DNA of 64,000 bases from a virus. Taxonomy: Duplodnaviria; Caudoviricetes. The position numbers were made by a program, and so were the translations under genes. Position 1 is the first letter of the stretch. Every line of letters begins with the position of its first letter. Below the pieces are notes generated by a model. It ran no database searches. It was not told the DNA's origin and saw only the letters and a program-made list of their open reading frames with translations. This document shows, piece by piece, positions 1,994 to 58,184 of the stretch. Where the stretch lies: the IMG/VR virus record IMGVR_UViG_3300022555_000031, positions 1 to 64,000 of that record. One strand, given 5' to 3'.

Positions 1994-2196
1994 TGGATAA
2001 CAATACCCTTGCGGTTATTATCCCCGTAGCCATGTTCTTTTCGTGGGTGCTTGGAGTCGGCCACGGAAGGGCAAGCATGATGGATGAGAAGTCTAAGGTG
2101 GAGGGAGAAAATCGGGCCCTCAGGAGTCTATTGAGCCAGGATGAAGATATGCGACGCAAGGCCTGGCGTTTAGTGGACAAGAAAAAAAAGACTTGA
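1993..2196 (+). CDS. small membrane-anchored protein
   Basis: N-terminal hydrophobic segment followed by coiled coil; translationally coupled. Confidence 0.6.
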   Translation: MDNNTLAVIIPVAMFFSWVLGVGHGRASMMDEKSKVEGENRALRSLLSQDEDMRRKAWRLVDKKKKT

Positions 2197-2221
2197 CAAT
2201 AAGTCTTATACCTTGTATAGT
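2193..2221 (+). promoter_or_regulatory. sigma70-type promoter
   Basis: TTGACA-N17-TATAGT upstream of the 2256 ORF and the sbcD-Ubl-sbcC block. Confidence 0.75.
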
Positions 2222-2255
2222 ATGGGTAGGTTAGATTAGTTGGACGGGAGGCGAT

Positions 2256-2462
2256 ATGAAGATTTCCAGGTTTCTGAGAATAACGGCGACGGGCAGTGAG
2301 TTGACGGACCACAGGTGGGATGTCTCGAGATGGCACGACAACATGGGGATGGGTATCGACAAGTTCCACACGTACAAAGAGGCTCTTGCGTTTGCCAGGG
2401 CCTTGCAGTTGGCCTACAGGAATGTCGGTAGAGAGTATATAGTGCGGAGAGAGGCGATATGA
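2256..2462 (+). CDS. hypothetical protein
   Basis: SD GGGAGG, first ORF after promoter. Confidence 0.65.
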   Translation: MKISRFLRITATGSELTDHRWDVSRWHDNMGMGIDKFHTYKEALAFARALQLAYRNVGREYIVRREAI

Positions 2463-2698
2463 ATGATTTAATTGTGGAGATATTCAATGCCAACGAAGAG
2501 TTCTACCGTACTCTTGCCTCAAAATATAGGGATGGAAAAGTCCCCCCGTTAAAATTGAAACTCAACGTATCACGGATTAGTTTTCAGGGTGCCACAGAAT
2601 CGTTTCCGCTCCGCAACAGGTTAACTCTTGAGGGCACTGTGTGTGACGCAGAGTTTATGGGTAGGAAAAAAATCAAAATTACAAACAAGGGGAAGTAA
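2459..2698 (+). CDS. hypothetical protein
   Basis: ATGA/TAATG coupling to both neighbours. Confidence 0.65.
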   Translation: MNDLIVEIFNANEEFYRTLASKYRDGKVPPLKLKLNVSRISFQGATESFPLRNRLTLEGTVCDAEFMGRKKIKITNKGK

Positions 2699-3885
2699 TG
2701 AAAAAAGGAATAATCTCCGCAGACTGGCACATCGATTACAATAACAGGATGGATGACACCAGGGCACGCATTGACGAATTGGTCGACCATGCTATCGGGC
2801 ATAAGGTCGACTTTTTTGCGTTCAATGGTGACGCATACAAGAACTGCAGGCCCATGCCAGTAGAACAGGAGATATTTCAGTCGGCACAAATCAGGCTCGT
2901 AAATGCTGGCATCCAGGTTATAGACATTGTCGGCAATCACGACTATCCGAATAGCGAGAACCAGATACATTGTTTATCGGAGTGGAAGACGCTCGGCATA
3001 AAGGGTGTCACGGTTGTTGATGAGCCCTCGGTAATCTCCCTCGGTTCAGATGATGAAGGGCATTACGTGGCTCTTTGTATGCCACATATACCGAAATCTG
3101 TTACTGGTAAGAGAAGGTATGCCGAAGTTTATAAAGAGGAGTTTGAAAAACTCTGGGAAAATTACCAGGAGCATGTGAGGCATGTTTCCACGGGCCGTCC
3201 GTTTTACGTAATGTTCCTTTCACACGTCCTTGCTACTGGTGCCGTGCTTGGTGCTACTGATTGGGCTGTTGCCCAGGGCGACGGTGTAGATATTGCCGAG
3301 GTTCTGCGTGGCAAGTATATTGACCTTGGATTTTTAGGTGATGTTCATAAGGAGCAAAGCGTGTTGGTTCAGGGGCCTACGGTAGTAGCTTATAGCGGAA
3401 GCCTTGAGAGGATAGATTTCGGTGAAACAATGGATAGGAAGGGCTTCTACTCTGTTGAATTAGGACACCCGAGCAAGATGGAGTTTGTGGTCAATAACGC
3501 CGTTCCGTTTGTCGAGGTGGTTTGCAACATAACTACCTCATCTCCCATGAACGAACTCTCAGCCTTTCTGGAGCAAGAATTTCATAATCCAGGGAGGTAT
3601 GAGGGGGCTATCGTCAAAGTGGTGATAGAGGCGACCGAGGAGCAGGCCAGGTTGATAGACGAGACCAAGTTTAGGGAGCTGTTTGCCGAGCTCAGGCCAC
3701 GGGAGATAGCATCATTCCAGGTGAATGTAACTGGAGCCGAGCGGGTCCGTAACGAGAATGTAAACGAGAACGCCAGCCCAGTTGATACGCTGAAGGAATG
3801 GGTCGGGATGCAGGTTGATATATCGGAAGACAAAAAGGAACGTATTATCAAAACTGGGGAAAAAATCCTCAAGGGATTAAATTGA
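2698..3885 (+). CDS. sbcD: SbcD/Mre11-family nuclease subunit
   Basis: SADWH, NGDAY, VGNHD, SHV, GDVH (variant of GHxH) and YSGSLERIDFGE motifs; partner SbcC downstream. Confidence 0.92.
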   Translation: MKKGIISADWHIDYNNRMDDTRARIDELVDHAIGHKVDFFAFNGDAYKNCRPMPVEQEIFQSAQIRLVNAGIQVIDIVGNHDYPNSENQIHCLSEWKTLGIKGVTVVDEPSVISLGSDDEGHYVALCMPHIPKSVTGKRRYAEVYKEEFEKLWENYQEHVRHVSTGRPFYVMFLSHVLATGAVLGATDWAVAQGDGVDIAEVLRGKYIDLGFLGDVHKEQSVLVQGPTVVAYSGSLERIDFGETMDRKGFYSVELGHPSKMEFVVNNAVPFVEVVCNITTSSPMNELSAFLEQEFHNPGRYEGAIVKVVIEATEEQARLIDETKFRELFAELRPREIASFQVNVTGAERVRNENVNENASPVDTLKEWVGMQVDISEDKKERIIKTGEKILKGLN

Positions 3886-3902
3886 GACCAAGGAGGTCGA
3901 CA

Positions 3903-4178
3903 ATGGCACTGTTTGCAAAGAAAGCGAAGGGCAAGGTAGAGAAGGTCAGGGTAACTATCGTGAAGCTCAGCGACAAGCTGAAAGAGATTGTTGTCCCAGT
4001 CGGGACTACAATTGAGGCCTGTTTCAAGCAGGCGGGGATTGAAGTTGCCTCGCAGTTTGAACTCCGCAAGGTAATCAATCTTGGGGCGAAACCCAAGACC
4101 TACAAGGCAAAGTTCACGGATGCAATCAAGGAACCAACCAACGTGTTCTATTCACCAAATGTCAAGGGTGGAAGGTAA
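3903..4178 (+). CDS. ubiquitin-like beta-grasp protein (91 aa, C-terminus KGG-R)
   Basis: SD AGGAGGT at 3891; strand-strand-helix pattern (VRVTIVK/EIVVP/TIEACFKQAG), ends NVFYSPNVKGGR; adjacent to E2, JAB and E1. Confidence 0.8.
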   Translation: MALFAKKAKGKVEKVRVTIVKLSDKLKEIVVPVGTTIEACFKQAGIEVASQFELRKVINLGAKPKTYKAKFTDAIKEPTNVFYSPNVKGGR

Positions 4179-4185
4179 ACTAAAC

Positions 4186-4224
4186 GGGGCCGTCACCCAG
4201 GCTGTGGCTTGGGTGATGGCGTCC
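4186..4224 (+). promoter_or_regulatory. strong intergenic RNA hairpin after Ubl gene
   Basis: GCCGTCACCCAGGC-TGTG-GCTTGGGTGATGGC, 14-bp core with two G-U pairs plus 3 outer pairs; no U tract. Confidence 0.65.
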
Positions 4225-4238
4225 CACAGGAGAGGTAA

Positions 4239-6047
4239 ATGTCAATGGTAACTCCACGTGATGCAAGCACTTCATTCCCAGCTCCTGAGCCCATACGTGT
4301 AGGCGTAGATGGGCAGGATTATGAGATACGTGGGCCAAGCGAACCAGGCCTGTGGCGTGACGAGGGGATGACAATCGAGACAACTATTCCAAGCTCTTAT
4401 AGCATGGGCGTAAAAGAATCTCGTTCACAGGATATGACCGAGTATAAGCCAGAAGACATCAAGACGGTGGAGTATGGCGGGTATAAGATTACATACGAAG
4501 ATAGCAACGGGAAAGTTGCAGATTATCTTGATGCGTTCAAGGTGGTGGTTGACAAATACAAGATAAATGTTACAGTTTACAATGTGCACGACCGCAATAA
4601 TTTGCCCTACGTGGACACCTTGAAGTCTCCGTCCAGGGATACTTTGTTTATTACAAACTTCGCTGTGCCGATTGTGGCAAAGAGGAAGAAGGACAGATTT
4701 AAGTCTGTAAAAAAGTTCAAGGAGATGTCCGTTGTGCAGGGTGGGGAGAATATAATCCTCAAGTTGAACGATTGGGAAGTAAAGTTGGAGAAGGGCCAGT
4801 CAGATTCCTACGCTTATGATAGTGGCATTGCCGAGGAGTTTTGTATCCGTGACGATACAAACATAAACATCCTGGGCACGGTTGATGCGAACAAGATTTT
4901 CATATCGTTTGACCTGATGCACTCTTCGAGCGACGATTCCAAGAGAATATTCTTATACATCGTGGATAAAGCCATGCAAGTTATGACCGACCTACACGAT
5001 GAATTGTTTGGTGCTTTTGACCAAGACACCTACCTCCAGTTTTGCAACAAGGCCTTCTTGAAGATGGTGCAAGAAAAACGCAGGTCTATTTTGGCAATTA
5101 ACAGACAAACCCTTGATTTTGAGCACACTATATTTTGCCTTCAGCGTGACAAGTGGAAACTTGTTAACGAACTCAGGCATATGGACGAGAACGAGATTAT
5201 CCAGGAGAAGAAAGAGGAATACAGTGAGCTGGTTAAACTGGCAAGCCTCGGAGGCTACAAGGAGTTCAAGATAATAGATGGTTACCTTTATGCCTATACC
5301 AATGAAATAACGGTTGAATACAAGGAGAAAAATTATCTCTTAGGCGAGTTTGAGGTAAAAGTCGGTGGAGAGCGAGGCGAGTTGCATATCAGGAACTTGA
5401 CCAATCAAAGGAAGGGATACAACCACCCGCACGTCAATAGAGAGGGCCATTGTTGCCTGGGGAATATCAGTTCCGATGTCCAGAAGATGCTGGGTGCCGA
5501 GCAGTATCTAATGGCGTTCCAGATGCTTTATAACTTCCTGGCGTCTTATGACGACAAAAATCCGTACACCAAGATAGATTTGTGGGATACGGAGTGGGAC
5601 GGTAAGACGGTGGTGAGCACGGAATTATCTCTTGCCGACATAGACGAGCAACTCGAACGTGATGAGAACGATGTGGAGCCCAGCTTGGATGGTTCTGTCA
5701 GGAGCCCAAGGGTGAGCCCTGATGTTGCCGACAACCTAAGGAGTTTGCCTAACGACGTAGATAGGGAAATGGAGCAGGTTATGGCCAGACACGCAGACGG
5801 GCAGATGCTTGGGTCCCGTCCACAGACCAGTGAGGAACGGGCCAGAGCGATAGTACGGGAGGAGATTCTTGGGGTTGATTCGGATTTACCAGCGACCCAT
5901 GGAAATGGTATGGAGATTGTGAGGGTAGATATGTCGCAACCAGGGAGCGAGTCTTTGTCGCCCGAAACGCTTCGCAGTGCATTAACGGTGCACGGTATGG
6001 GCGAAGCACAGGAAAGAGAGCCAGCAACACCAGAGCTACAATTTTAG
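4239..6047 (+). CDS. coiled-coil + prokaryotic E2 (UBC-like) domain protein
   Basis: NHPHVNREGHCCLGN (HPHV..G..CLG E2 signature, codons from 5424) after a coiled coil; acidic disordered tail. Confidence 0.75.
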   Translation: MSMVTPRDASTSFPAPEPIRVGVDGQDYEIRGPSEPGLWRDEGMTIETTIPSSYSMGVKESRSQDMTEYKPEDIKTVEYGGYKITYEDSNGKVADYLDAFKVVVDKYKINVTVYNVHDRNNLPYVDTLKSPSRDTLFITNFAVPIVAKRKKDRFKSVKKFKEMSVVQGGENIILKLNDWEVKLEKGQSDSYAYDSGIAEEFCIRDDTNINILGTVDANKIFISFDLMHSSSDDSKRIFLYIVDKAMQVMTDLHDELFGAFDQDTYLQFCNKAFLKMVQEKRRSILAINRQTLDFEHTIFCLQRDKWKLVNELRHMDENEIIQEKKEEYSELVKLASLGGYKEFKIIDGYLYAYTNEITVEYKEKNYLLGEFEVKVGGERGELHIRNLTNQRKGYNHPHVNREGHCCLGNISSDVQKMLGAEQYLMAFQMLYNFLASYDDKNPYTKIDLWDTEWDGKTVVSTELSLADIDEQLERDENDVEPSLDGSVRSPRVSPDVADNLRSLPNDVDREMEQVMARHADGQMLGSRPQTSEERARAIVREEILGVDSDLPATHGNGMEIVRVDMSQPGSESLSPETLRSALTVHGMGEAQEREPATPELQF

Positions 6048-6059
6048 GGAGGAGCAAGA

Positions 6060-6683
6060 ATGCGAGTATTTTTTCCATATTTCAAGGTGTCGATAGAAGA
6101 AGCAACGTATAAAAGAATCATGGATATTACTATGGCCACCAAGGGTGAGTGGAGTTGTTTTGGTGTGGTGAAAAAAGACGGTAATAATTTCCTGATATCA
6201 GACATAGTCATCCCTAAGCAGGATAACAGTGCTGGGCAAACGACTATGGATATCGACGACCTTTGCGACATGGCGAGTGATATGGCTCTCCGTGGACAGG
6301 ATACTTCCGAGTGGCATTGCTGGATTCATTCGCACGGGGATTTCAATGTGTTCTATTCATCTACTGACAACAAAACCATAGACGGGTTTATGAAGTTCTT
6401 CTCGCAGGAGAATTCATACCTGATTTCGATAGTCGTGAATCACGCAGGGGAGTTGATATGCAGGGTTGATATCAACTATCCTGTTCGGGTTACGCTCGGC
6501 GAGGTTGTAGTGGAGATTAAGAAGGCGACGGTCCCGTTGTTAGCTCCTCCGCCGATAATAGACAAAGAGAGAGTGTTGACGCTTGTTAAAAATAGCAGGG
6601 GATTTTATAGTATTAGAGGGGCCAGGTTATACAGGACTCCGATAGAGGAAAGTATAGACGTTATAACCAAGGAGGATAAATAG
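6060..6683 (+). CDS. JAB/MPN+ metallopeptidase (deubiquitinase-like)
   Basis: N-terminal Glu (GEWSCFG) and WIHSHGDFNVFYSSTD = HxH-x7-S-x2-D JAMM motif. Confidence 0.88.
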   Translation: MRVFFPYFKVSIEEATYKRIMDITMATKGEWSCFGVVKKDGNNFLISDIVIPKQDNSAGQTTMDIDDLCDMASDMALRGQDTSEWHCWIHSHGDFNVFYSSTDNKTIDGFMKFFSQENSYLISIVVNHAGELICRVDINYPVRVTLGEVVVEIKKATVPLLAPPPIIDKERVLTLVKNSRGFYSIRGARLYRTPIEESIDVITKEDK

Positions 6684-7820
6684 ATGGATGCTGATATCAG
6701 GCAGATGCAAGAGTTTGTTCTAAACACCATAAGGACAACCTTTGTATCGGATTTGGTGGCAGGAGACCCCACGCCACTATTACCGCCACCAGCCCCGCCA
6801 GAGAGCAATGCAATGTTCTGGAGGCAGTTGGATATTGTAAACGTGGATAACCTAAGGACCCTCCCAATAGTAATCATTGGTGCTGGGGCTGTTGGAAGTT
6901 TTACCGCTTTAAGTTTGGCCAAGATGGGAGCGGAAGATATCACTGTTTACGATGACGATAAAGTTGAGATGCACAACCTACCCAACCAGTTCTATCGGTT
7001 GGCGGATATTGATAGGTTCAAGGTGCGGGCGTTAAGGGGTATCATCCAAGATTTCACTGGCATCAAGATAAAGATTTTCAACAAGAGATACAAGGCACAA
7101 CCGCTATCTGGGGTTGTTATTGTGACGGTAGATTCTATGGCCTCCAGGAAAATTATCTGGGAGAGGGCCAAGATGAACCCGCTGGTCCCGTTATATGTCG
7201 ATTCCAGGATGGGGGCACAGGTTTACGACATCCAATCCTTCCGTCCTACAGACATGGATGCGATAAAGTATTATGAAGAATCCTTACATGACGACAAGAA
7301 TACGCTCACTGAAAGATGCACGGAGAAGGCTATTATTTATACAGTGATGTCTATGGCTAATCTTTTGTGCAACATGGTGAAGAGGTTTATCCAGGGAGAT
7401 AAGGTTCCAATGCGTATCAATGGAGACGGCGTGACACTCATGCAGAACGTGGAAGAGGACCCGCTTGAGACCGAACCATTGCCATCCCTGGAAAAGGAAG
7501 AGGGTGTTGAGCCAGACTTATTCTCTGTCCGCAATAACATCGGCGACTTGGTTGGTCAGCCACTTACTGCAGGGAATCTACAGCGGGCAATGGAAGGTCT
7601 GCGGGTAACAAGACCTGATTCGTCAATAGACGTGGGGGAATATGAGCGGGCTTTGAGGTCTGCTGGAGTGGCGGTAGCTGAAAGGAGTGACGCCAGTAAT
7701 GTCGTTGAGGGCACCGCAAGGGAGAGTGTTATAACGGAGATTCCACTAAGGGCAACCACCAACAGGGTAGTGTTGAATGATGGAATATACCTCGGAGCAA
7801 GAGGGTCACGCTCCAGTTAG
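6684..7820 (+). CDS. E1/ThiF-family adenylyltransferase (Ubl-activating enzyme)
   Basis: IIGAGAVGS, YDDDKVEMHNLPNQF, VDSMASRK, YVDSRMG; candidate catalytic Cys in ERCTEK; no CxxC Zn sites. Confidence 0.9.
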   Translation: MDADIRQMQEFVLNTIRTTFVSDLVAGDPTPLLPPPAPPESNAMFWRQLDIVNVDNLRTLPIVIIGAGAVGSFTALSLAKMGAEDITVYDDDKVEMHNLPNQFYRLADIDRFKVRALRGIIQDFTGIKIKIFNKRYKAQPLSGVVIVTVDSMASRKIIWERAKMNPLVPLYVDSRMGAQVYDIQSFRPTDMDAIKYYEESLHDDKNTLTERCTEKAIIYTVMSMANLLCNMVKRFIQGDKVPMRINGDGVTLMQNVEEDPLETEPLPSLEKEEGVEPDLFSVRNNIGDLVGQPLTAGNLQRAMEGLRVTRPDSSIDVGEYERALRSAGVAVAERSDASNVVEGTARESVITEIPLRATTNRVVLNDGIYLGARGSRSS

Positions 7821-7844
7821 AACCTTGTAACAACGGAGGAATAC

Positions 7845-10046
7845 ATGGATGTTAGAAAGGTAGTGTATAGTAATTTCAAGTCGCTTCGTAATGAGACGTT
7901 GGATTTGGCTGGTATCAACGGGGCCTTTTTGGTCCTGGGTATGATAAACGGGGACCCAGGGTTGTCTAACGGGGCGGGTAAATCCTCAATGGTTGAGGGC
8001 TATGTCTGGTGTGTTTTTGGCGAATCACCATTGAAGAGTGATGATGAGCTTATAACTACTGGCGAAGACACGATGTCCGTCCAGACTGAATATGTTTCCA
8101 ATGGCAACAATTATGTAATCTACAGGAAAAGAATACGTGGCAAGAAGACCGAGTTGCTCTTTACGGAGAACGGCAGGTCTTTGACCGAGAACAGTGTGAA
8201 GGCGACGCAGGCGGTTATCCATGAGAAACTTTTGTCATACAATCTCTACCTTAACACTGGGTATTTCAAACAGCAGGAGTTTGACGTTCTTGCCAGACAG
8301 ACCCCAGCGAACCGCAAAGCGATACTTATGGAGCTACTACCTCTCCTGATTTATTCTAAGGGACTGGAAGCGGTTAAAGCTTACATCTCTTCCCTCGAGA
8401 AAGACATCTATGCTAAGGAGCAAAGCCTGTCTGATATAGACTTGAAGGTTATCGAGACCCAACTGGAGACCTGCGGGTTGCTTATTGCAACGCTCAGGGG
8501 CCGTGTGGAGCAGGATACCGCCACCATCAAGGGGTTGACTGCGGAGTTGGACGGTTATCAGCAGGAGTATGGCAAGTTCCAGGGTAAATTGCAGATGCTT
8601 GAAAGCATGACTGATGAGTTAAAGAAGGCGACTCGTGAAGTTGAGATGATAGAGACGCAGATTGGGAATAACAGGCGGGCCAAGGAGAACGAAATCTCTA
8701 ACACGAAATCAGAGATAGGTAAATGCCAGGACCAGATAGGGGGCAAGGTTCGGATAGACAGTATCCTGGCCGAGATAGAAGCAGAGGTTAAGAAGATTGC
8801 CACGGTGAAGATTGAGGTGGCACAGTTAACCGAAGAGCGTAGGGGTTTAACCGAACAGGGTATTGTCATCCAAAGGAATATCCCTGCATTAAAGGCCGAG
8901 GTTGATAAACTTAGGAACAAATATAAAGCACTGGCCGAGGTGGAGACGCCAGATTGCCCATTGTGCGGGTCGCTGTTGGACACGGAGAAGGTAGGCAAGG
9001 TCCTCAAGGACATAGAGGAAGAGGGTAAGGCAAAGAAAGCACAGATGGAGGGCCTGGAAGAAGACCTGAAGGCCATTGGGGAGAAGGTCCGTGCTGTTGA
9101 TGAGAACATTAAAAGACATGAGTCTTCTTTACAGAGAGAGCGGGAGATAGAGAAGGATAAAAAGAAATATGAGGCCATGCTTGTTGATATACAGATTGCC
9201 GAGAACAGGCTCCAGTATATGAAGGACCAGCAACAACAGATAGAAGCTAAATACGCCTCAGACGATACGATGATTACCAGTATGCGAGATGAGAAGATAA
9301 AGCACAAAGCGGACCTGGAGAAGAAGGTTAAGGCGATAGACATAGACAAGACCGCAGTTAATAAGGTGGCCTTTGCTATAGAAGAGAAGCAGGCCCAGAT
9401 TAAGATGAAGCAAAGGGGCATTGAAGATACCATGCAGGAAATCGGGAAGTCGGAACAGTTTATCAAGCAACACGAGGAGACCAAGAAGAAGTTTGCGGTA
9501 GACTCTCAGCGGTTGGTCGAGATGAAGGACGAAATGTTCATCTATGAGCAACTGGCCAGGGCATTTGGCAAAGACGGAATACCAGCGTTGATACTCGAGA
9601 ACGTTATCCCTGAGATAGAGATTGAAGCTAATGCTATCATGGCCAGGTTGAGCAGTGGCAAGATGAGGATAAGTTTACTTACACAGCGAGAGAAGAAAGC
9701 TGGCGGGCTCACAGAGACCCTGGACATAGTTATCAGCGACGACAAGGGGTCGAGGGCGTATGAGTCGTATTCTGGCGGAGAGAGAATGAGAATCAATATG
9801 GCAATCCGCCTTGCCTTGTCCAAGATACTCTGCAGACGCTCGGGGACGAAGATAGAGACGGTTATCATCGACGAGGTGGACGCCCTGGACGACGCTGGTG
9901 TCAGGGGTTTCGTATCAGTGATAAACGACATGCAAAACATGTTCAAGAAGATTATAATTATTTCGCATATCAGCGAGCTGAAAGAATACTTCAAACAGAC
10001 CATCACGGTCAATAAGACTTTAGAGGGCAGTAAGATAATTGTCTGA
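7845..10046 (+). CDS. sbcC: SbcC/Rad50-family SMC-like ATPase
   Basis: Walker A NGAGKSS, long coiled coil with CPLC Zn hook, signature YSGGE, Walker B IIDEVDALD, H-loop ISH. Confidence 0.95.
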   Translation: MDVRKVVYSNFKSLRNETLDLAGINGAFLVLGMINGDPGLSNGAGKSSMVEGYVWCVFGESPLKSDDELITTGEDTMSVQTEYVSNGNNYVIYRKRIRGKKTELLFTENGRSLTENSVKATQAVIHEKLLSYNLYLNTGYFKQQEFDVLARQTPANRKAILMELLPLLIYSKGLEAVKAYISSLEKDIYAKEQSLSDIDLKVIETQLETCGLLIATLRGRVEQDTATIKGLTAELDGYQQEYGKFQGKLQMLESMTDELKKATREVEMIETQIGNNRRAKENEISNTKSEIGKCQDQIGGKVRIDSILAEIEAEVKKIATVKIEVAQLTEERRGLTEQGIVIQRNIPALKAEVDKLRNKYKALAEVETPDCPLCGSLLDTEKVGKVLKDIEEEGKAKKAQMEGLEEDLKAIGEKVRAVDENIKRHESSLQREREIEKDKKKYEAMLVDIQIAENRLQYMKDQQQQIEAKYASDDTMITSMRDEKIKHKADLEKKVKAIDIDKTAVNKVAFAIEEKQAQIKMKQRGIEDTMQEIGKSEQFIKQHEETKKKFAVDSQRLVEMKDEMFIYEQLARAFGKDGIPALILENVIPEIEIEANAIMARLSSGKMRISLLTQREKKAGGLTETLDIVISDDKGSRAYESYSGGERMRINMAIRLALSKILCRRSGTKIETVIIDEVDALDDAGVRGFVSVINDMQNMFKKIIIISHISELKEYFKQTITVNKTLEGSKIIV

Positions 10047-10053
10047 GGTGGCT

Positions 10054-10434
10054 ATGGTTGAGACAGCGATAAAGATGGCGGGTCAGTGCCAGATGTGTAA
10101 GGAGGCCACTGAAGAGCGGTGGCGGATGTTATTCGAGGTCCATCAGATTGGGGCAAAGGTCCAGGACTCTTTAATCAAGGCGTACATAGACGACATGAAG
10201 GCTGGAGAAAGAGTTTTTTCTATGGACAATATAGATTATATGCAGACCAAGCTGGAGGACATGGAGTGTTTTAATGTGCGGGTGAACACGATAGTATTCT
10301 TCTTGTGTGACGACTGCAAGGATATTGTGATTCAAAGGATGACTGAAGGGGGTATCGCTCATTTAGCGGACCATGTGGTGAAATCTTTAGGGGAGGGCAA
10401 GGGTGGACAAAATAAAACTGACGGAGCCGTTTAG
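10054..10434 (+). CDS. hypothetical Zn-binding protein
   Basis: CQMC...CDDC; SD GAGGTG before ATG 10054. Confidence 0.7.
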   Translation: MVETAIKMAGQCQMCKEATEERWRMLFEVHQIGAKVQDSLIKAYIDDMKAGERVFSMDNIDYMQTKLEDMECFNVRVNTIVFFLCDDCKDIVIQRMTEGGIAHLADHVVKSLGEGKGGQNKTDGAV

Positions 10435-10588
10435 GTGCCTGTTGAGCCATGCGAACTGGAATGCGAAGGACGAAAAGATTTACAAGAGCCTGCTGGATTG
10501 GCACGATAAACACGGTGGGCTTACTGTAAAGCAGACGCAATTACTCGGCAGTTTATATAGCCGATACGGGGAGGGTAAGACAAGATGA
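10403..10588 (+). CDS. hypothetical protein
   Basis: 61-aa ORF with SD GGAGGG. Confidence 0.55.
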   Translation: MDKIKLTEPFRCLLSHANWNAKDEKIYKSLLDWHDKHGGLTVKQTQLLGSLYSRYGEGKTR

Positions 10589-10737
10589 TAAAGGGTCAAA
10601 GGATAGCGTGGTGTGTAATACTGGAGCGTAAGACAGATAAATCTCAGTGTAAGCGTTGCGAGAGGGGCGGTGAGACTCCAGAACAGAGAAAGGATTGTGC
10701 GAAGATGAGTATAAAATTCCGTAACAAGGAGGAGTAA
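10585..10737 (+). CDS. hypothetical Cys-containing protein (50 aa)
   Basis: Manual translation MIKGQRIAWC...CKRC...; ATGA coupled; fills gap. Confidence 0.5.
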   Translation: MIKGQRIAWCVILERKTDKSQCKRCERGGETPEQRKDCAKMSIKFRNKEE

Positions 10738-10738
10738 G

Positions 10739-11050
10739 ATGTGGATAATAGTGGTAGTGGTTTTGCTTACGATTGCCGTAGGATTACTTGCTTGCGTGGT
10801 GGGGGACTTAGACAAAAAGATTGCCAAACTGACCAACAAGATGGATTGTGTTGACAGCAAGTTTCAGGGCATATACGGATACGGAGACTTCTGGGACATG
10901 AAGATGGTGTGCGAGCAGTTTAACACAATCCATAGGAGGTTTCGCCTACTTGAAGAACACTTCGGGATTAAACGGGAAATCACTCCAATAATCACCAAGT
11001 ATGTCCCTGTGAAAAAACAAAAGGGAGGGAAATATGGAAGCAAACAATAA
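10739..11050 (+). CDS. membrane-anchored hypothetical protein
   Basis: N-terminal TM helix then coiled coil; SD GGAGG. Confidence 0.7.
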   Translation: MWIIVVVVLLTIAVGLLACVVGDLDKKIAKLTNKMDCVDSKFQGIYGYGDFWDMKMVCEQFNTIHRRFRLLEEHFGIKREITPIITKYVPVKKQKGGKYGSKQ

Positions 11051-11444
11051 GGCTTGGGCAAGGTTTACGCTCTCAGGTGTGGAGTATTACGGCAGGATAA
11101 CTATTGTTCCTGTCACCGACGACATACCCCTTATAGAGCGGGTTAAGGATGTGGTGTTTGGCAATGCAAAGGTCATCCTGGAGTATCCGCACATCTTGAC
11201 CAGGATACAGGGCCCAGATGGCAGGATACACATGAACCCTATTCCGTTATATCCAGCGGAGACAGAGATGTCATTCAAGTCTATGATTATCGACGCTGGT
11301 AAAATAGACACGGTGGTTCCAATGAAAGAGACCGAGGGGATTATCAAGGCCATCAGGGATGCCGAGGGGATAGGCGAGAAGATTATTGCGGTTACCCCAG
11401 TGGCCCCGATACCAAAGAACGTCATCCAGTTTGACGGCAGGTAA
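11034..11444 (+). CDS. hypothetical protein
   Basis: 136-aa ORF, SD GGGAGGG. Confidence 0.75.
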   Translation: MEANNKAWARFTLSGVEYYGRITIVPVTDDIPLIERVKDVVFGNAKVILEYPHILTRIQGPDGRIHMNPIPLYPAETEMSFKSMIIDAGKIDTVVPMKETEGIIKAIRDAEGIGEKIIAVTPVAPIPKNVIQFDGR

Positions 11445-11459
11445 TAAAAGGAGAAAACA

Positions 11460-11759
11460 ATGAAGAAGTTAAAGTTCACGGGTGTCGTACCGACTACAAC
11501 GAAAGAGGTTAGAAAGTGGTGTCTACATTTCTTCCGCAACGACCCGCAGGTGGCCATGTCTCTTTCTGCTGGCAGTATCGGATATGGGGAGACTTTTGAC
11601 GACATAGTCCGCATTGTCACACCATTCCTCAAGCTATTAGCCTATAAAGAGCAGTTGCGGTTTGAGTATTATAATCTGCATGATGAGTTCGAAAAGATTG
11701 ATGCTAAGCTTGCCAAGGGACTTGCTGTCGGGGTAAAAAAATGCCGAAATTCAAAATAG
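11460..11759 (+). CDS. hypothetical protein
   Basis: 99-aa ORF, SD AGGAG. Confidence 0.7.
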   Translation: MKKLKFTGVVPTTTKEVRKWCLHFFRNDPQVAMSLSAGSIGYGETFDDIVRIVTPFLKLLAYKEQLRFEYYNLHDEFEKIDAKLAKGLAVGVKKCRNSK

Positions 11760-11962
11760 AATTCTGCAAAGTCTACCTGGAGCCCTTCGAGGAACAGGTA
11801 GTTGAGGCTGAGACCGAACTCAGTGCCAAGATTATCGCCAGGGGGCTGGTGACTCAAAGGCAAAGGGAAATAGAGACCCAGATAACGGCGTCTGTTTCCC
11901 TGGTGAAGGAAGAGCCATCAGCCCCGCCGACGACCAATGCGGGTGCGGGCTGTCCATTTTAA
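11741..11962 (+). CDS. hypothetical protein
   Basis: 73-aa ORF ending in CPF. Confidence 0.6.
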   Translation: MPKFKIEFCKVYLEPFEEQVVEAETELSAKIIARGLVTQRQREIETQITASVSLVKEEPSAPPTTNAGAGCPF

Positions 11963-11970
11963 TATTATCC

Positions 11971-11999
11971 TTGACAATCTATTGGACAACCGTTATAAT
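11971..11999 (+). promoter_or_regulatory. consensus sigma70 promoter
   Basis: TTGACA-N17-TATAAT directly upstream of the clamp gene. Confidence 0.85.
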
Positions 12000-12043: not shown

Positions 12044-13153
12044 GTGGAAGTTAAACTGAACCGCAGTGACATAAAAAACAAACTGGATGCTGTGTGCCAG
12101 GTTACTGGCTCCAAGATGAAGTTCATCCTGTCATCTGTAAAAATTATTAAGGTGGCCGATAAATTAGAGCTCCATGCTTCTAATGGCACGATATCAATAA
12201 TCACATCTATTAAACTCACAGACAACGACAACTCGGAAGGCGGTATGGTTGTTAACGCAAAAGAATTGGCCTCCCTGGTTGACAGTGCTCCCGAGAAAGA
12301 AATCAAGCTTATAGAACGTGCGAACACTATTGATTTTGTTTCTGGGGATTTTGTGGCCAAGTTATCTAAGTTGCCTCTTACGGATTACCCCGAGTTCAAA
12401 CTGAACCCACCAGAAGATAGTGTTGCGATAGGCTTCAGTGTGTTCAGGGAAGCGATAACAAAGGTGTTGGCCGTTGTGGATGAGAATAGTAGTTCTCTTC
12501 CGTTGTGTGGAGTATATTTCAAGGGCATGTATGTGATTGCGAGCGACGGCAAGATGTCGACTTTTGCCACCCTGCCCGTTGGGCCAATCCTGGAGGTTAT
12601 TGTTCCAGTGAAACTCTTAAACATTGTGAAGGGGTTTGAGCGGGCCGAGGAAAATATCCTCATATCCGTGCAAGGGCCTTCAATTACATTTAAGTATGGG
12701 GATACCCTTTTGGCTGGACAAGTCGTGGATGCAAAGTATCCCGACATAGTTAAGGCTATATCTGCATTTAAGGTGGACCTTTCCCTGAAAGTAGATAAGA
12801 CGGCCCTCCTTGATGTCCTTGATAGGGCGACATTGTTCACTTCTTTATCGGTGAATAAGGCGGTGCCAGCGATTAAGTTCGAGATAATACCAGGCAAGGA
12901 TAAGTCGACGTATCGGATTACGTCTGTGGTTGACGGTAGGCAGACTGTGGAGTCTCACCCGTGCGTATCCTGGACTGGCGACAAATTCGAGTCCACCTTT
13001 AACGTGTTGTACTTGAAGCGGGCTGTATCTTTTGTTCAAGGGGAAGTGGTGTCTATTCGCCTGGGTATGCCGAGTGCCGAGGGGAGGAGGATGCCAATAT
13101 TTGTTGACGAAGACGATAAGGGCTACCACTCAGTTATAATGGCAATGAAGTAA
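12044..13153 (+). CDS. dnaN: DNA polymerase III beta sliding clamp
   Basis: 369 aa three-domain size; ILSSVKI, VNAKEL, DYPEF, IASDGK, AKYPD, FNVLYL match beta-clamp positions. Confidence 0.88.
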   Translation: MEVKLNRSDIKNKLDAVCQVTGSKMKFILSSVKIIKVADKLELHASNGTISIITSIKLTDNDNSEGGMVVNAKELASLVDSAPEKEIKLIERANTIDFVSGDFVAKLSKLPLTDYPEFKLNPPEDSVAIGFSVFREAITKVLAVVDENSSSLPLCGVYFKGMYVIASDGKMSTFATLPVGPILEVIVPVKLLNIVKGFERAEENILISVQGPSITFKYGDTLLAGQVVDAKYPDIVKAISAFKVDLSLKVDKTALLDVLDRATLFTSLSVNKAVPAIKFEIIPGKDKSTYRITSVVDGRQTVESHPCVSWTGDKFESTFNVLYLKRAVSFVQGEVVSIRLGMPSAEGRRMPIFVDEDDKGYHSVIMAMK

Positions 13154-13631: not shown

Positions 13632-13653
13632 GGGGCGGGCTTCGGCCCGCCCC
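13632..13653 (+). terminator. GC-rich hairpin with cUUCGg tetraloop (possible terminator or stabiliser)
   Basis: GGGGCGGGC-TTCG-GCCCGCCCC perfect 9-bp stem; no U tract. Confidence 0.55.
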
Positions 13654-15085: not shown

Positions 15086-16171
15086 GTGGCACAAGACAAT
15101 GACATGGATGTGACCATAAGTATCCACGCCAGGAAGAGATACCTTATATCGATTGGGCTGTCTGGGGTAGTGGTTGCGTTGCTGGTTACCTTGGCGTTCA
15201 GTTGGTTCCAGTACAACAGTTATAAAAATAAATCAGAGGCCCTGGATATGCAATACAAGGGTAAACTTGTAGACTTATATAAGATGAGCAAAGACCTCAG
15301 CGAGTCCAAGGCCACGTTCGTCAACCTACAGAATACTATCTTGGCCGATGAACAGGATAAACGCAGGCGGGCCTATTGGGAGAAGTTGGCCTACTATATC
15401 GCTGGGCGTTACAATTCGTATGGGATGAAAAGACAGAAGGCGGATATGGATTTCATGCGGTATGCCGTGGCGAGTAGTTTTGAGTGTGCCGAGAAGCTGT
15501 ATGCGAAACATTTAATAGGGAATTATTCTACAGGGGTCAGGGATTGTGCCCTGAAAAGTCTTGGACATAAGCGGAAGGAAAGTGATTTCACCCTTGAGTG
15601 CGTGGGGTATAATTACGAGAAAGACTACACTGGTAAGTATTATATTATAGACCGTGATAGCGGGCGAGACGGGAGCGTAAGGTTTAACCTTGAGAAGAAG
15701 TTTGGCAGGGTTGTCGAGTGCGGTTACGACTATAAGAGAGACAGGGATAGGAGGTTTGTTGTTAAATCTGAATACGCAAAGAAATACGGTAAGACGATTA
15801 GTAGTTCAGATGTGAACCCATATAAGTCTTATCCCCACCTAATCTCCAATGGCAAGTTGTATGGGGTGCCAGTAGGGAAAATCAATAGAGACAAGGTTTA
15901 CCTGTTCTTAAATATTTTAAGTAAGGATTTTGGTTGGGAGCAGGTAAACTCGATTAACCTGGATGATTGCTATGCTATCTTGAGGAAGGCTGGGTTGTGG
16001 AGCCCGAGCATGGATAAAGATGTGATGGACCCAGAGATGAACACAATGTTGAGGATGGTGGAAGAAGAGATGCTCTGGAAGATGGGGTGCAGGAAAGAGG
16101 TCCCGTATGTAGGCGATGTATCTTTTTACGAAGACCTTAAAAAAATAGATGGATGGAGTGGGCTATATTAG
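15086..16171 (+). CDS. membrane-anchored protein, probable lytic transglycosylase-like domain
   Basis: N-terminal TM + coiled coil; RKESDF...N, SKDFGWEQVNS and DPEMN resemble lysozyme-fold LT motifs with a large insertion. Confidence 0.5.
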   Translation: MAQDNDMDVTISIHARKRYLISIGLSGVVVALLVTLAFSWFQYNSYKNKSEALDMQYKGKLVDLYKMSKDLSESKATFVNLQNTILADEQDKRRRAYWEKLAYYIAGRYNSYGMKRQKADMDFMRYAVASSFECAEKLYAKHLIGNYSTGVRDCALKSLGHKRKESDFTLECVGYNYEKDYTGKYYIIDRDSGRDGSVRFNLEKKFGRVVECGYDYKRDRDRRFVVKSEYAKKYGKTISSSDVNPYKSYPHLISNGKLYGVPVGKINRDKVYLFLNILSKDFGWEQVNSINLDDCYAILRKAGLWSPSMDKDVMDPEMNTMLRMVEEEMLWKMGCRKEVPYVGDVSFYEDLKKIDGWSGLY

Positions 16172-17175: not shown

Positions 17176-17470
17176 CGGGTTCTCTCACACGATAAAGATT
17201 CCAGATGAAAGGAAAGTGGATATAATTTTCGACCAGCTATTCCAGGCCAATGGAACCTATACGGAAAGAGACGATAGGAATAAGGTAACCTTACGGCTTG
17301 ACGTCGCAGAGGTGGTGTTTGCGAGAAGGCTGATAGAAGGTGAATCATTTGGTCCCTATAAGGCACGTCCACAAAACAGTGCAGGGCCGATGCCAACACC
17401 AGCACCAGTGCCAGTAATGGACGACAAGGTGAAGGCACTCGAGGAGAGTCTCGCTCAAAAAACTTCTTGA
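17141..17470 (+). CDS. hypothetical protein
   Basis: 109 aa, SD GGGAGGGG. Confidence 0.7.
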   Translation: MFSNRILVVLRSGFSHTIKIPDERKVDIIFDQLFQANGTYTERDDRNKVTLRLDVAEVVFARRLIEGESFGPYKARPQNSAGPMPTPAPVPVMDDKVKALEESLAQKTS

Positions 17471-17495
17471 CAAGAATCTAAGAAGCGTGTATAAT
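17467..17495 (+). promoter_or_regulatory. consensus sigma70 promoter
   Basis: TTGACA-N17-TATAAT; -35 lies inside palindrome TTCTTG-A-CAAGAA. Confidence 0.85.
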
Positions 17496-21905: not shown

Positions 21906-22169
21906 ATGGCTGAGTATATAGATTTCATAGAACTACCACGCAACCCAGGGGCCGTAACATGGCAGTGGAAGGTTGTGAATAAGCAAAATGGCAGTGTAGT
22001 TGGCGGAATTAAGTGGGAGAATGGGTGGAGGTGTTATTGTTTCCACCCGTCATTCCCAACGATATTTGAGCACGTATGCCTGGAAGATATCGCTTCGTTC
22101 TTAAAGAAGAACACCCAGGAGCAGAAGGATATGGCAACGTTGAGAAGGAAGACAGGATTGGCGGGATAA
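21906..22169 (+). CDS. hypothetical phage protein
   Basis: IKW..GWRCYCF.P...TIF...CL.DI pattern common in phage ORFs. Confidence 0.7.
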   Translation: MAEYIDFIELPRNPGAVTWQWKVVNKQNGSVVGGIKWENGWRCYCFHPSFPTIFEHVCLEDIASFLKKNTQEQKDMATLRRKTGLAG

Positions 22170-31205: not shown

Positions 31206-31234
31206 TTGACAAGAAGGAGCGATAGTAATATAAT
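31206..31234 (+). promoter_or_regulatory. consensus sigma70 promoter of packaging/late block
   Basis: TTGACA-N17-TATAAT. Confidence 0.85.
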
Positions 31235-31290: not shown

Positions 31291-31337
31291 GGAACTGATT
31301 CGTGACATAACAGTCACGAGTCGGTTCCTTTTTGTTT
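31291..31337 (+). terminator. intrinsic terminator/attenuator in leader of the terminase operon
   Basis: 16-bp stem GGAACTGATTCGTGAC-ATAACA-GTCACGAGTCGGTTCC (2 G-U) followed by TTTTTGTTT. Confidence 0.85.
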
Positions 31338-58158: not shown

Positions 58159-58184
58159 TCTGGGGGAGGACACCCTCCCCCAGA
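58159..58184 (+). terminator. perfect 11-bp hairpin (possible terminator or processing site)
   Basis: TCTGGGGGAGG-ACAC-CCTCCCCCAGA; no U tract. Confidence 0.6.

Follow-up and report, generated by a model that had tools for sequence, protein, structure and literature searches.

Why would a phage carry a complete ubiquitin-like conjugation cassette between the genes for the two subunits of its SbcCD nuclease, the Mre11-Rad50-type complex that processes DNA ends? The locus belongs to an uncultured lake phage and lies in the first 64 kb (the window, 64,000 nucleotides) of the 85.6-kb IMG/VR virus record IMGVR_UViG_3300022555_000031 (Duplodnaviria; Caudoviricetes), which is estimated to be 75% complete. 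Here sbcD is followed by genes for a ubiquitin-like protein (Ubl), an E2-like conjugating enzyme, a JAB metallopeptidase, and an E1 activating enzyme, and then by sbcC. The original prediction left two options, that the ubiquitin-like system modifies or partners the nuclease or that it inserted at this position to share its timing; insertion for shared timing fits our results best, whereas a specific partnership is unsupported by them. On balance we think it probable that the Ubl-E2-JAB-E1 module was inserted once into a cargo-tolerant sbcD-sbcC gap in an ancestor of this lineage and has been inherited with a sigma-70-driven early/middle operon, thereby sharing the timing of DNA metabolism rather than forming a dedicated partnership with SbcCD. 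We favor this reading because the module also travels alone, because one divergent relative (locus L063) keeps the gene order and another (L111) keeps the E1-sbcC junction, and because the gap holds other cargo elsewhere.

All open reading frames (ORFs) of the window are on the + strand. The features of the locus are:

2193..2221, + strand: sigma-70-type promoter, TTGACA-17-TATAGT, 11/12
2256..2698, + strand: a pair of short, overlapping ORFs (68 and 79 aa) at the head of the operon, of which the second has a stop that overlaps the sbcD start (ORF list)
2698..3885, + strand: sbcD, Mre11-like nuclease subunit, 395 aa (Metallophos, phrog_100, TIGR00619)
3903..4178, + strand: Ubl precursor, 91 aa, ending in NVKGG-R (translation, alignment, Atlas model)
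4186..4225, + strand: 17-bp GC-rich hairpin just 3′ of the Ubl stop, without a U tract
4239..6047, + strand: E2-like conjugating enzyme, 602 aa (invariant residues, AlphaFold2 model, fold matches)
6060..6683, + strand: JAB/JAMM metallopeptidase, 207 aa (invariant zinc-site residues, profile against the PDB)
6684..7820, + strand: E1, ThiF-type adenylating enzyme, 378 aa (ThiF match, invariant residues)
7845..10046, + strand: sbcC, Rad50-like ATPase, 733 aa (phrog_77, zinc hook, TIGR00618)
10039..11962, + strand: seven more small ORFs in the same presumed transcription unit (ORF list)
11971..11999, + strand: next promoter, TTGACA-17-TATAAT, 12/12, heading the sliding-clamp unit

The six genes from sbcD to sbcC lie head to tail with intergenic gaps of 17, 60, 12, 0, and 24 nt, and the junctions originally reported on either side of the cassette (17 nt between sbcD and Ubl, 24 nt between E1 and sbcC) are exact by the gene coordinates. 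Ribosome-binding sites are readable 5′ of Ubl (AAGGAGG, 7 nt upstream of its ATG start), E2-like, JAB, and sbcC, and E1 begins directly at the JAB stop. SbcD and SbcC belong to a replication/recombination region that also encodes a RuvC-like resolvase, a sliding clamp (12044-13153; phrog_947, 2.9e-37, after the promoter at 11971), and a DHH phosphoesterase, followed by the terminase and giant structural proteins. The two opening ORFs match no Pfam or PHROG family above threshold. A megablast search with positions 2100-10100 found no match among GenBank phages, none of which is close at the DNA level.

The cassette itself is widespread. A DNA scan requiring the E2 motif HPHVxxxGxxCLGN recovered 15 viral loci and 40 loci in metagenome-assembled genomes (MAGs); a locus scan with alignment A1 recovered one locus, and no locus came from scanning viral contigs with the E2-like protein or with SbcC as single queries. 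The order E2-JAB-E1 occurs in 9 of the 15 viral loci, with E1 plus E2 present in 13, and in 32 of the 40 MAG loci, where Ubl lies immediately 5′ of E2 or 3′ of E1. Neither SbcC nor SbcD is encoded near the cassette in any viral locus (within 10 kb) or any MAG locus (within 8 kb). When the whole viral records were searched for the SbcC family, one of the 15 contained SbcC, ~75 kb from the cassette, and 14 contained none, including six of the seven records that are at least 90% complete. Since SbcCD is absent near all 55 loci and the gene order is mostly kept, the cassette is best described as a self-contained, mobile module. The neighbors in 10 MAG loci are mutually unrelated and include Schlafen/AlbA proteins, PD-(D/E)XK nucleases, RadC, a TrwB-type coupling protein, and housekeeping genes. 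In one MAG locus a PD-(D/E)XK nuclease gene lies directly 3′ of the cassette E1 (L043, 10011-10784), and in L061 another lies ~5 kb downstream of E1 (15134-16042).

The nuclease genes, in turn, occur without the cassette. An SbcC-alignment scan of viral contigs yielded 22 loci, which divide as follows:

sbcD abuts or overlaps sbcC (overlap or at most 10 nt): 10/22
256-nt gap between sbcD and sbcC: 1/22 (L084)
one repeat-protein ORF inserted in the gap: 1/22 (L064)
ubiquitin-like cassette in the gap: 1/22 (L063)
sbcD 3.5 kb downstream: 1/22 (L073)
SbcD not detected: 8/22

The SbcCD pairs annotated as exonuclease 1 and 2 in Herelleviridae resemble the window in having two proteins encoded in the order sbcD then sbcC, but such genes abut or, in two GenBank records, lie 108 and 113 nt apart, whereas 3,959 nt and four genes separate them in this phage. 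Thus the premise of normal sbcD-sbcC adjacency is borne out by 10 of the 22 viral loci and both Herelleviridae records but fails for the nearest SbcCD kin of the window. These kin (L091, L093, and L094) have SbcC proteins 30-31% and SbcD proteins 32-34% identical to those of the window, compared to ~29% for SbcD of L063, and their gaps of 1.57, 1.58, and 4.3 kb, respectively, are filled by other genes that give no cassette match even at E≤0.1. Because the inserts vary among kin, the junction evidently holds different cargo by branch, and SbcCD also occurs with no cassette in it. Directly upstream of sbcC, these low-GC relatives (L091, 2056-3130; L093, 3445-4376; L094, 6627-7613) share two recurring ORFs (~205-235 and ~117-126 aa), which may be SbcCD-associated genes of that branch.

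The closest relative is represented by proteins only, with SbcC 66%, SbcD 58%, and the E2-like protein ~49% identical to those of the window; the longest contig listed is 140,639 bp for each of the three. The arrangement itself recurs in L063, a 139-kb contig with a GC content of 65%, in the order sbcD, orfA, probable Ubl, E2-like, JAB, E1, orfB, sbcC, with one extra ORF at each junction (orfA and orfB). Identities to the window are 29% for SbcD, 26-28% for the E2-like protein, 37% for JAB, 36-37% for E1, and 29% for SbcC; the large terminase subunits (TerL) are 42% identical, and in the flanks one small ORF is detectably conserved and no other gene. The 102-aa ORF at the Ubl position of L063 is a probable Ubl on the basis of a weak match to the Ubl profile (E 4.7e-4 over 28 columns), and it ends in KAGAN. 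A weak second E2-like ORF (3021-4001) precedes it. An SbcC scan of metagenomes gave 80 loci, two of which were added to the lineage: L097, which is 100% identical to L063 and therefore not independent, and L111, a 3.2-kb fragment (GC 59%) that encodes E1, one small ORF, and then SbcC. As its E1 and SbcC are 44% and 38% identical, respectively, to those of L063, L111 counts as a third lineage member. Two TerL relatives, L086 and L087, lack both SbcC and E1, but these fragments are 38% and 30% complete and so uninformative. The synteny comparison proposed in the original prediction therefore cuts both ways: L063 and L097 have the same order and L111 places E1 beside sbcC, whereas 55 cassette loci have no nearby SbcCD and the kin L091, L093, L094, and L064 hold other genes in the gap.

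In a maximum-likelihood tree (IQ-TREE) of concatenated E1, JAB, and E2 core sequences from 24 loci (656 columns), the window and L063 cassettes are sisters (Shimodaira-Hasegawa-like approximate likelihood ratio test, SH-aLRT, 95.4), and constrained and free trees have equal likelihood. The 24 loci, taken from 45, comprise 18 of a FastTree clade plus 6 outgroups; left out of the trees were L039, which has two cassettes, L005 (on the contig that also has L012), L019 (a duplicate of L011), and the GenBank loci L002 and L003. The cassette in the window has a GC content, a GC content at third codon positions, and a codon usage inside the range of the phage, and no flanking repeats were found around it, so no insertion scars remain. 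The region is covered by nearly identical contigs from lake metagenomes (four runs, two studies), which show neither joints nor deletion variants; the X4 contigs span both cassette-sbcCD junctions, and X5 spans the sbcD-Ubl junction only.

How the block is transcribed can be predicted from its signals. Six + strand promoter sites matching at least 11/12 positions occur in the 64 kb, four of which are intergenic (2193, 11971, 17467, and 31206). The perfect sequence TTGACA-17-TATAAT occupies intergenic gaps at 11971-11999, 17467-17495, and 31206-31234, and these three promoters plus the 11/12 site at 2193 appear to mark operon heads. Because a scan of the whole window places no promoter of at least 11/12 from 2221 to 11971, the transcription unit probably extends over 2256-11962, within which sbcD, the cassette, and sbcC would be co-transcribed. 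The claim that six genes share one transcript from the promoter at 2193 thus survives in its absence of a strong internal promoter but needs enlarging, as the unit probably comprises ~15 ORFs rather than six.

The companion claim, that no terminator interrupts the block, requires a similar qualification. A terminator scan found no convincing canonical terminator on the + strand within the sbcD-sbcC block, but the strongest hairpin of the window stands 3′ of Ubl (4186-4225), with no U tract. This hairpin (-32 kcal/mol, z -3.65, with 0 of 200 shuffles equally stable) is the most stable 46-nt segment in the 64 kb and may act as an attenuator or as a 3′ stabilizer that raises Ubl mRNA relative to the enzyme genes. 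L063, with 3 nt between Ubl and E2, does not keep it. The five most stable hairpins of the window are all intergenic (4186-4225, 13632-13653, 31291-31328, 58159-58184, and 22015-22057) and most lack a U tract; that at 31291 alone precedes a T-rich run. Hairpins of this U-less kind may serve the phage or its host as terminators or as RNA-stabilizing ends.

The cassette proteins are hard to recognize from single sequences. No match to Pfam, PHROG, NCBIfam, or PADLOC models was obtained for Ubl, the E2-like protein, or JAB; in the PADLOC search Ubl and the E2-like protein gave no matches and JAB gave noise only, while E1 matched Cap2-type "E1-E2" models (25 of 31 among the matches listed). Comparison with relatives is more informative. 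Six small ORFs beside other cassettes align with Ubl, and in all seven sequences a C-terminal G[GA] is followed by one to three residues, reading GG in five of the six relatives and GA in one, and GG in six of the seven overall. Although Ubl does not match Pfam ThiS, its Atlas model (predicted local distance difference test score, pLDDT, 0.64) matches ThiS/MoaD/SAMP2/RnfH clusters with template modeling (TM) scores of 0.62-0.71, so that Ubl is modeled as a ThiS/MoaD-type beta-grasp protein with a C-terminal Gly-Gly. In JAB, which as a single sequence has no Pfam match, E30, H90-S-H92, S100, and D103 do not vary across 9 sequences, and its profile matches PDB entries for an Rpn11-like protein (6fjv, 1.5e-8) and Rpn11 (6.4e-7). 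Its E...HxH...S..D zinc site identifies it as a putative JAMM/MPN+ metallopeptidase.

E1 matches ThiF (8.7e-20; cut-off 28.1 bits), and its model matches UBA5 (4.5e-15) and ThiF (TM 0.72) as well as MoeB, Atg7, and Cap2. G66, G68, S72, D90, D92, D150, R155, and C212 are invariant in 13 sequences; these supply the nucleotide-binding glycine motif, Mg-binding Asp, and conserved Cys of a ThiF-MoeB adenylating enzyme, and C212 is presumably catalytic. A C-terminal extension of 122 aa (7452-7820), modeled with low confidence, is absent from the 12 other viral E1s aligned. This tail is not significantly similar to the Ubl profile (E 0.12 over 14 columns), to Ubl itself, or to the tail of the E2-like protein, nor does it detectably resemble orfB of L063, a separate 125-aa ORF at that position. 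Genes annotated as "thiamine biosynthesis protein" in the cultured Flavobacterium phage FpV4 (L002, 3548-6618) and Xanthomonas phage PhiXhv-12 (L003, 5938-6621) encode short E1s of the cassette type that adjoin toprim, uracil-DNA glycosylase (UDG), ligase, and topoisomerase genes, and the E1 of FpV4 has a JAB-like ORF (phmmer 6.5e-4) just 5′ of it.

The E2-like protein comprises a variable N-terminal domain, a long helical hairpin, a UBC-like core (residues 317-455), and a disordered acidic tail (460-602). A profile built from four homologues retrieves 2,986 cluster representatives at E≤1e-3, of which 1,315 pass the stricter cut-off E≤1e-10, forming a large family that is uncatalogued in the model collections named above; its 50 aligned members show no meaningful Pfam domain, only single chance matches. 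In that alignment G369, H396, P397, C406, G408, and L434 are invariant and conservation of H398 and N409 is 90% or more, which gives an active-site region with an HPN-type motif (HPH396-398) followed by the putative catalytic Cys406. The AlphaFold2 model has a mean pLDDT of 69 and is confident over residues 70-455. Foldseek ranks E2s at the top for the core (E 1.3e-2, probability 0.99), and VIA aligns it with UbcH10 (1i7k; Z 7.1, 120 residues aligned, root-mean-square deviation 3.8 Å), whereas a search of PDB sequences with the profile reaches UbcH7 only at E ~0.9 and otherwise yields mostly coiled-coil noise. Although these fold scores are middling, we assign the core a predicted UBC fold on the strength of the uniform E2 top lists, whole-domain coverage, and the HPH...C motif.

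Only the core of the protein aligns with that of L063 (hhalign 9.8e-26), the N-terminal domains having no significant similarity. The Atlas clusters nearest to the E2-like protein (4239-6047; proteins P0009-P0155) are 73-100% viral. Disordered acidic tails of ~140 aa characterize the E2-like proteins of the lineage (window, 5616-6047; L063, 5740-6114; P0006 and P0007), and Phe is the last residue in three of the four distinct sequences (PELQF, EEGPF, and RMTEF), the fourth ending in EDPRL. Acidic, Phe-tipped tails are typical of SSB and T7 gp2.5. Tandem E2-like paralogues occur in several loci (L013, L008, L028, L036, and L037), and one MAG locus (L039, 3238-9908) contains two complete cassettes in tandem.

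The flanking proteins have the motifs of a nuclease of the Mre11-Rad50 type. SbcD matches Metallophos (1.1e-7), phrog_100 (5.5e-24), and TIGR00619 (3.8e-21; at 76 bits just below the 77.65 cut-off), and the phosphoesterase motifs DWH, GD, and GNHD are readable. Its motif V reads GDVH, where GHxH is expected of Mre11-type proteins. SbcC matches phrog_77 (3e-86), the Rad50 zinc hook (2.8e-6), and TIGR00618 (1.3e-38), with a readable Walker A motif, CPLC (CxxC) hook, SGG signature, Walker B motif, and H-loop.

Does the position between two subunit genes, then, signify a partnership? Eukaryotic Mre11-Rad50 (MRN) is controlled by ubiquitin and SUMO, and a phage Ubl system might likewise modify or dock on SbcCD or on proteins at the DNA ends that it processes, the conserved six-gene block being a functional unit that switches or targets the nuclease. 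Such coupling is suggested by the placement of the cassette exactly between the subunit genes with short junctions and no strong internal promoter, above all by the retention of the arrangement in L063 and partly in L111 across deep divergence, by the three proteins of the closest relative, each with that same longest contig, and by the long extra tails of the E2-like protein and E1 in this lineage. We nevertheless consider it quite unlikely: the 55 other cassette loci have no SbcCD nearby, nearly all viral cassette records lack SbcC altogether (14 of 15, most of the near-complete ones included), SbcCD kin as close as L063 hold other genes in the gap, and both L063 junctions are broken by extra ORFs. 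We regard a remnant cassette, inactive or in decay, as extremely improbable, for although three of its four proteins escape the Pfam, PADLOC, and NCBIfam models, nothing else points that way; the frames are open, every family-invariant catalytic residue is present, codon usage is that of the rest of the phage, and lake metagenomes from two studies have the arrangement in nearly identical form. The four parts are all intact, with conserved catalytic residues and the expected folds, and we infer that the cassette is enzymatically active.

Several observations count against a single insertion retained for its timing. The block has held together despite ~30% identity, a GC content of 47% in the window versus 65% in L063, and turnover of the flanking small genes, and this could reflect selection for linkage with SbcCD. 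The E1-only tree is a polytomy around the window and L063, and in the FastTree of 45 loci the two are not sisters, so that their sisterhood is favored rather than proven. The motif scan missed L063, and hence further sbcD-cassette-sbcC cases may exist. Finally, in 7 of 12 distinct viral cassette contigs a gene for a helicase, primase, SSB, or UvsX-type recombinase lies no more than 7 kb away, an uncontrolled count since annotatable phage genes are biased to that class, and in two further contigs the nearby genes of this kind are limited to endonuclease VII or a clamp-loader-like ATPase. These neighborhoods raise a minority possibility, that the module tags replisome, recombination, or host repair and defense proteins early in infection and needs no SbcCD. 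UvsX, a Holliday-junction resolvase, and helicases are encoded near the cassette in L006, DnaB, SSB, and a clamp-loader-like ATPase in L011, L014, and L016, DnaB and primase in L018, and UvsX and ParB in L015; the related E1s of the GenBank phages stand beside the DNA-metabolism genes listed above, and an acidic stretch plus Phe ends the E2-like protein in three of four distinct lineage members. The same annotation bias affects this tally, however, and the cassettes of L007 and L017 lie near terminase genes, that of L008 near methyltransferases, and those of MAGs in heterogeneous contexts.

Under the single-insertion reading that we prefer, a Ubl-E2-JAB-E1 module with bilABCD-like gene order would have entered the gap once in an ancestor of the phage lineage and been inherited vertically thereafter inside the early/middle replication/recombination operon. 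During infection JAB would cleave off Arg91 to expose Gly-Gly, and E1 would adenylate Gly90 and then load it on Cys212. Ubl would be handed to Cys406 of the E2-like protein, which would conjugate it to targets probably picked by the lineage-specific N-terminal domain or the tails.

Elsewhere in the window, an invariant heptapeptide, NILLREG, gives 18 pattern matches over 34833-62275, distributed as 4, 11, 2, and 1 over four giant proteins. A small or charged residue follows each copy, and the tag ends in Gly; no link from this tag to the JAB or E1 genes was seen in the window.

The nearest described system is BilABCD, an anti-phage, ISG15-like system with the gene order Ubl, E2, JAB deubiquitinase, E1 (Hor et al., bioRxiv 10.1101/2023.09.04.556158). 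Judged by the available portion of that preprint, the phage cassette has the same four genes in identical order, a cysteine-based E1 and E2, and a glycine Ubl C-terminus. BilA, however, consists of two fused ubiquitin-like domains with Gly last, whereas the phage Ubl is a single 91-aa beta-grasp domain that ends in GG-Arg. The extra Arg alone does not disqualify it, because 12 BilA homologues in the same portion of the preprint have overhangs of 2-9 aa. The cassette also differs in being encoded by a lytic-type phage rather than a bacterium, Bil being a host defense that attaches its Ubl to a phage tail protein, in the 602-aa size and extra domains of its E2-like protein, and in that Ubl, E2-like, and JAB lack a sequence-model match. 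The conserved prokaryotic neighborhood termed operon type 6d (Iyer, Burroughs and Aravind 2006, PMC1779556), as far as the accessible sections of that paper describe it, has the identical four components (Ub-like, JAB, E1-like, and E2-like), but its E2-like proteins lack the classical E2 histidine, while the phage protein has HPH before Cys, and the phage cassette has no alpha-helical fifth gene. The phage examples in those sections are tail-assembly TAPI/TAPK proteins, not full cascades.

The phage E1 also recalls type II CBASS (an anti-phage defense that signals through cyclic oligonucleotides), as its core matches PADLOC "E1-E2" models down to 9.1e-12 and its model matches Cap2 structures (7to3 and 7tsx) at ~1e-10. 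Type II CBASS, however, has a Cap2 E1-E2 fusion and a Cap3 JAB, whereas the phage encodes separate E1 and E2 proteins and a dedicated Ubl, with no CD-NTase or effector gene nearby. Bub operons resemble the cassette in encoding E1, E2, and Ubl together but, according to the accessible part of their description, use oxyester intermediates and a serine protease (Ye et al., 10.1101/2024.11.21.623953), in contrast to the invariant cysteines and JAMM metalloenzyme protease of the phage cassette. A literature search, with subscription journals and supplements outside its scope, found no publication describing a full Ubl cascade encoded by a phage or a cassette located within sbcCD.

Bacterial Ubl conjugation has so far been described as host defense against phages, in Bil, type II CBASS, and Bub; here a phage owns the full cascade, locked in the DNA-end-processing operon of a lineage across deep divergence. 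Even shared timing alone places the action of the cassette with replication and recombination rather than with virion assembly, and the six genes form a compact natural construct for a target search. Should its targets prove to be SbcCD or replisome proteins, Ubl tagging would for the first time be tied to DNA repair beyond eukaryotes and archaea, and functional coupling, if true, would represent a viral, prokaryote-level counterpart of the ubiquitin/SUMO control of double-strand-break processing.

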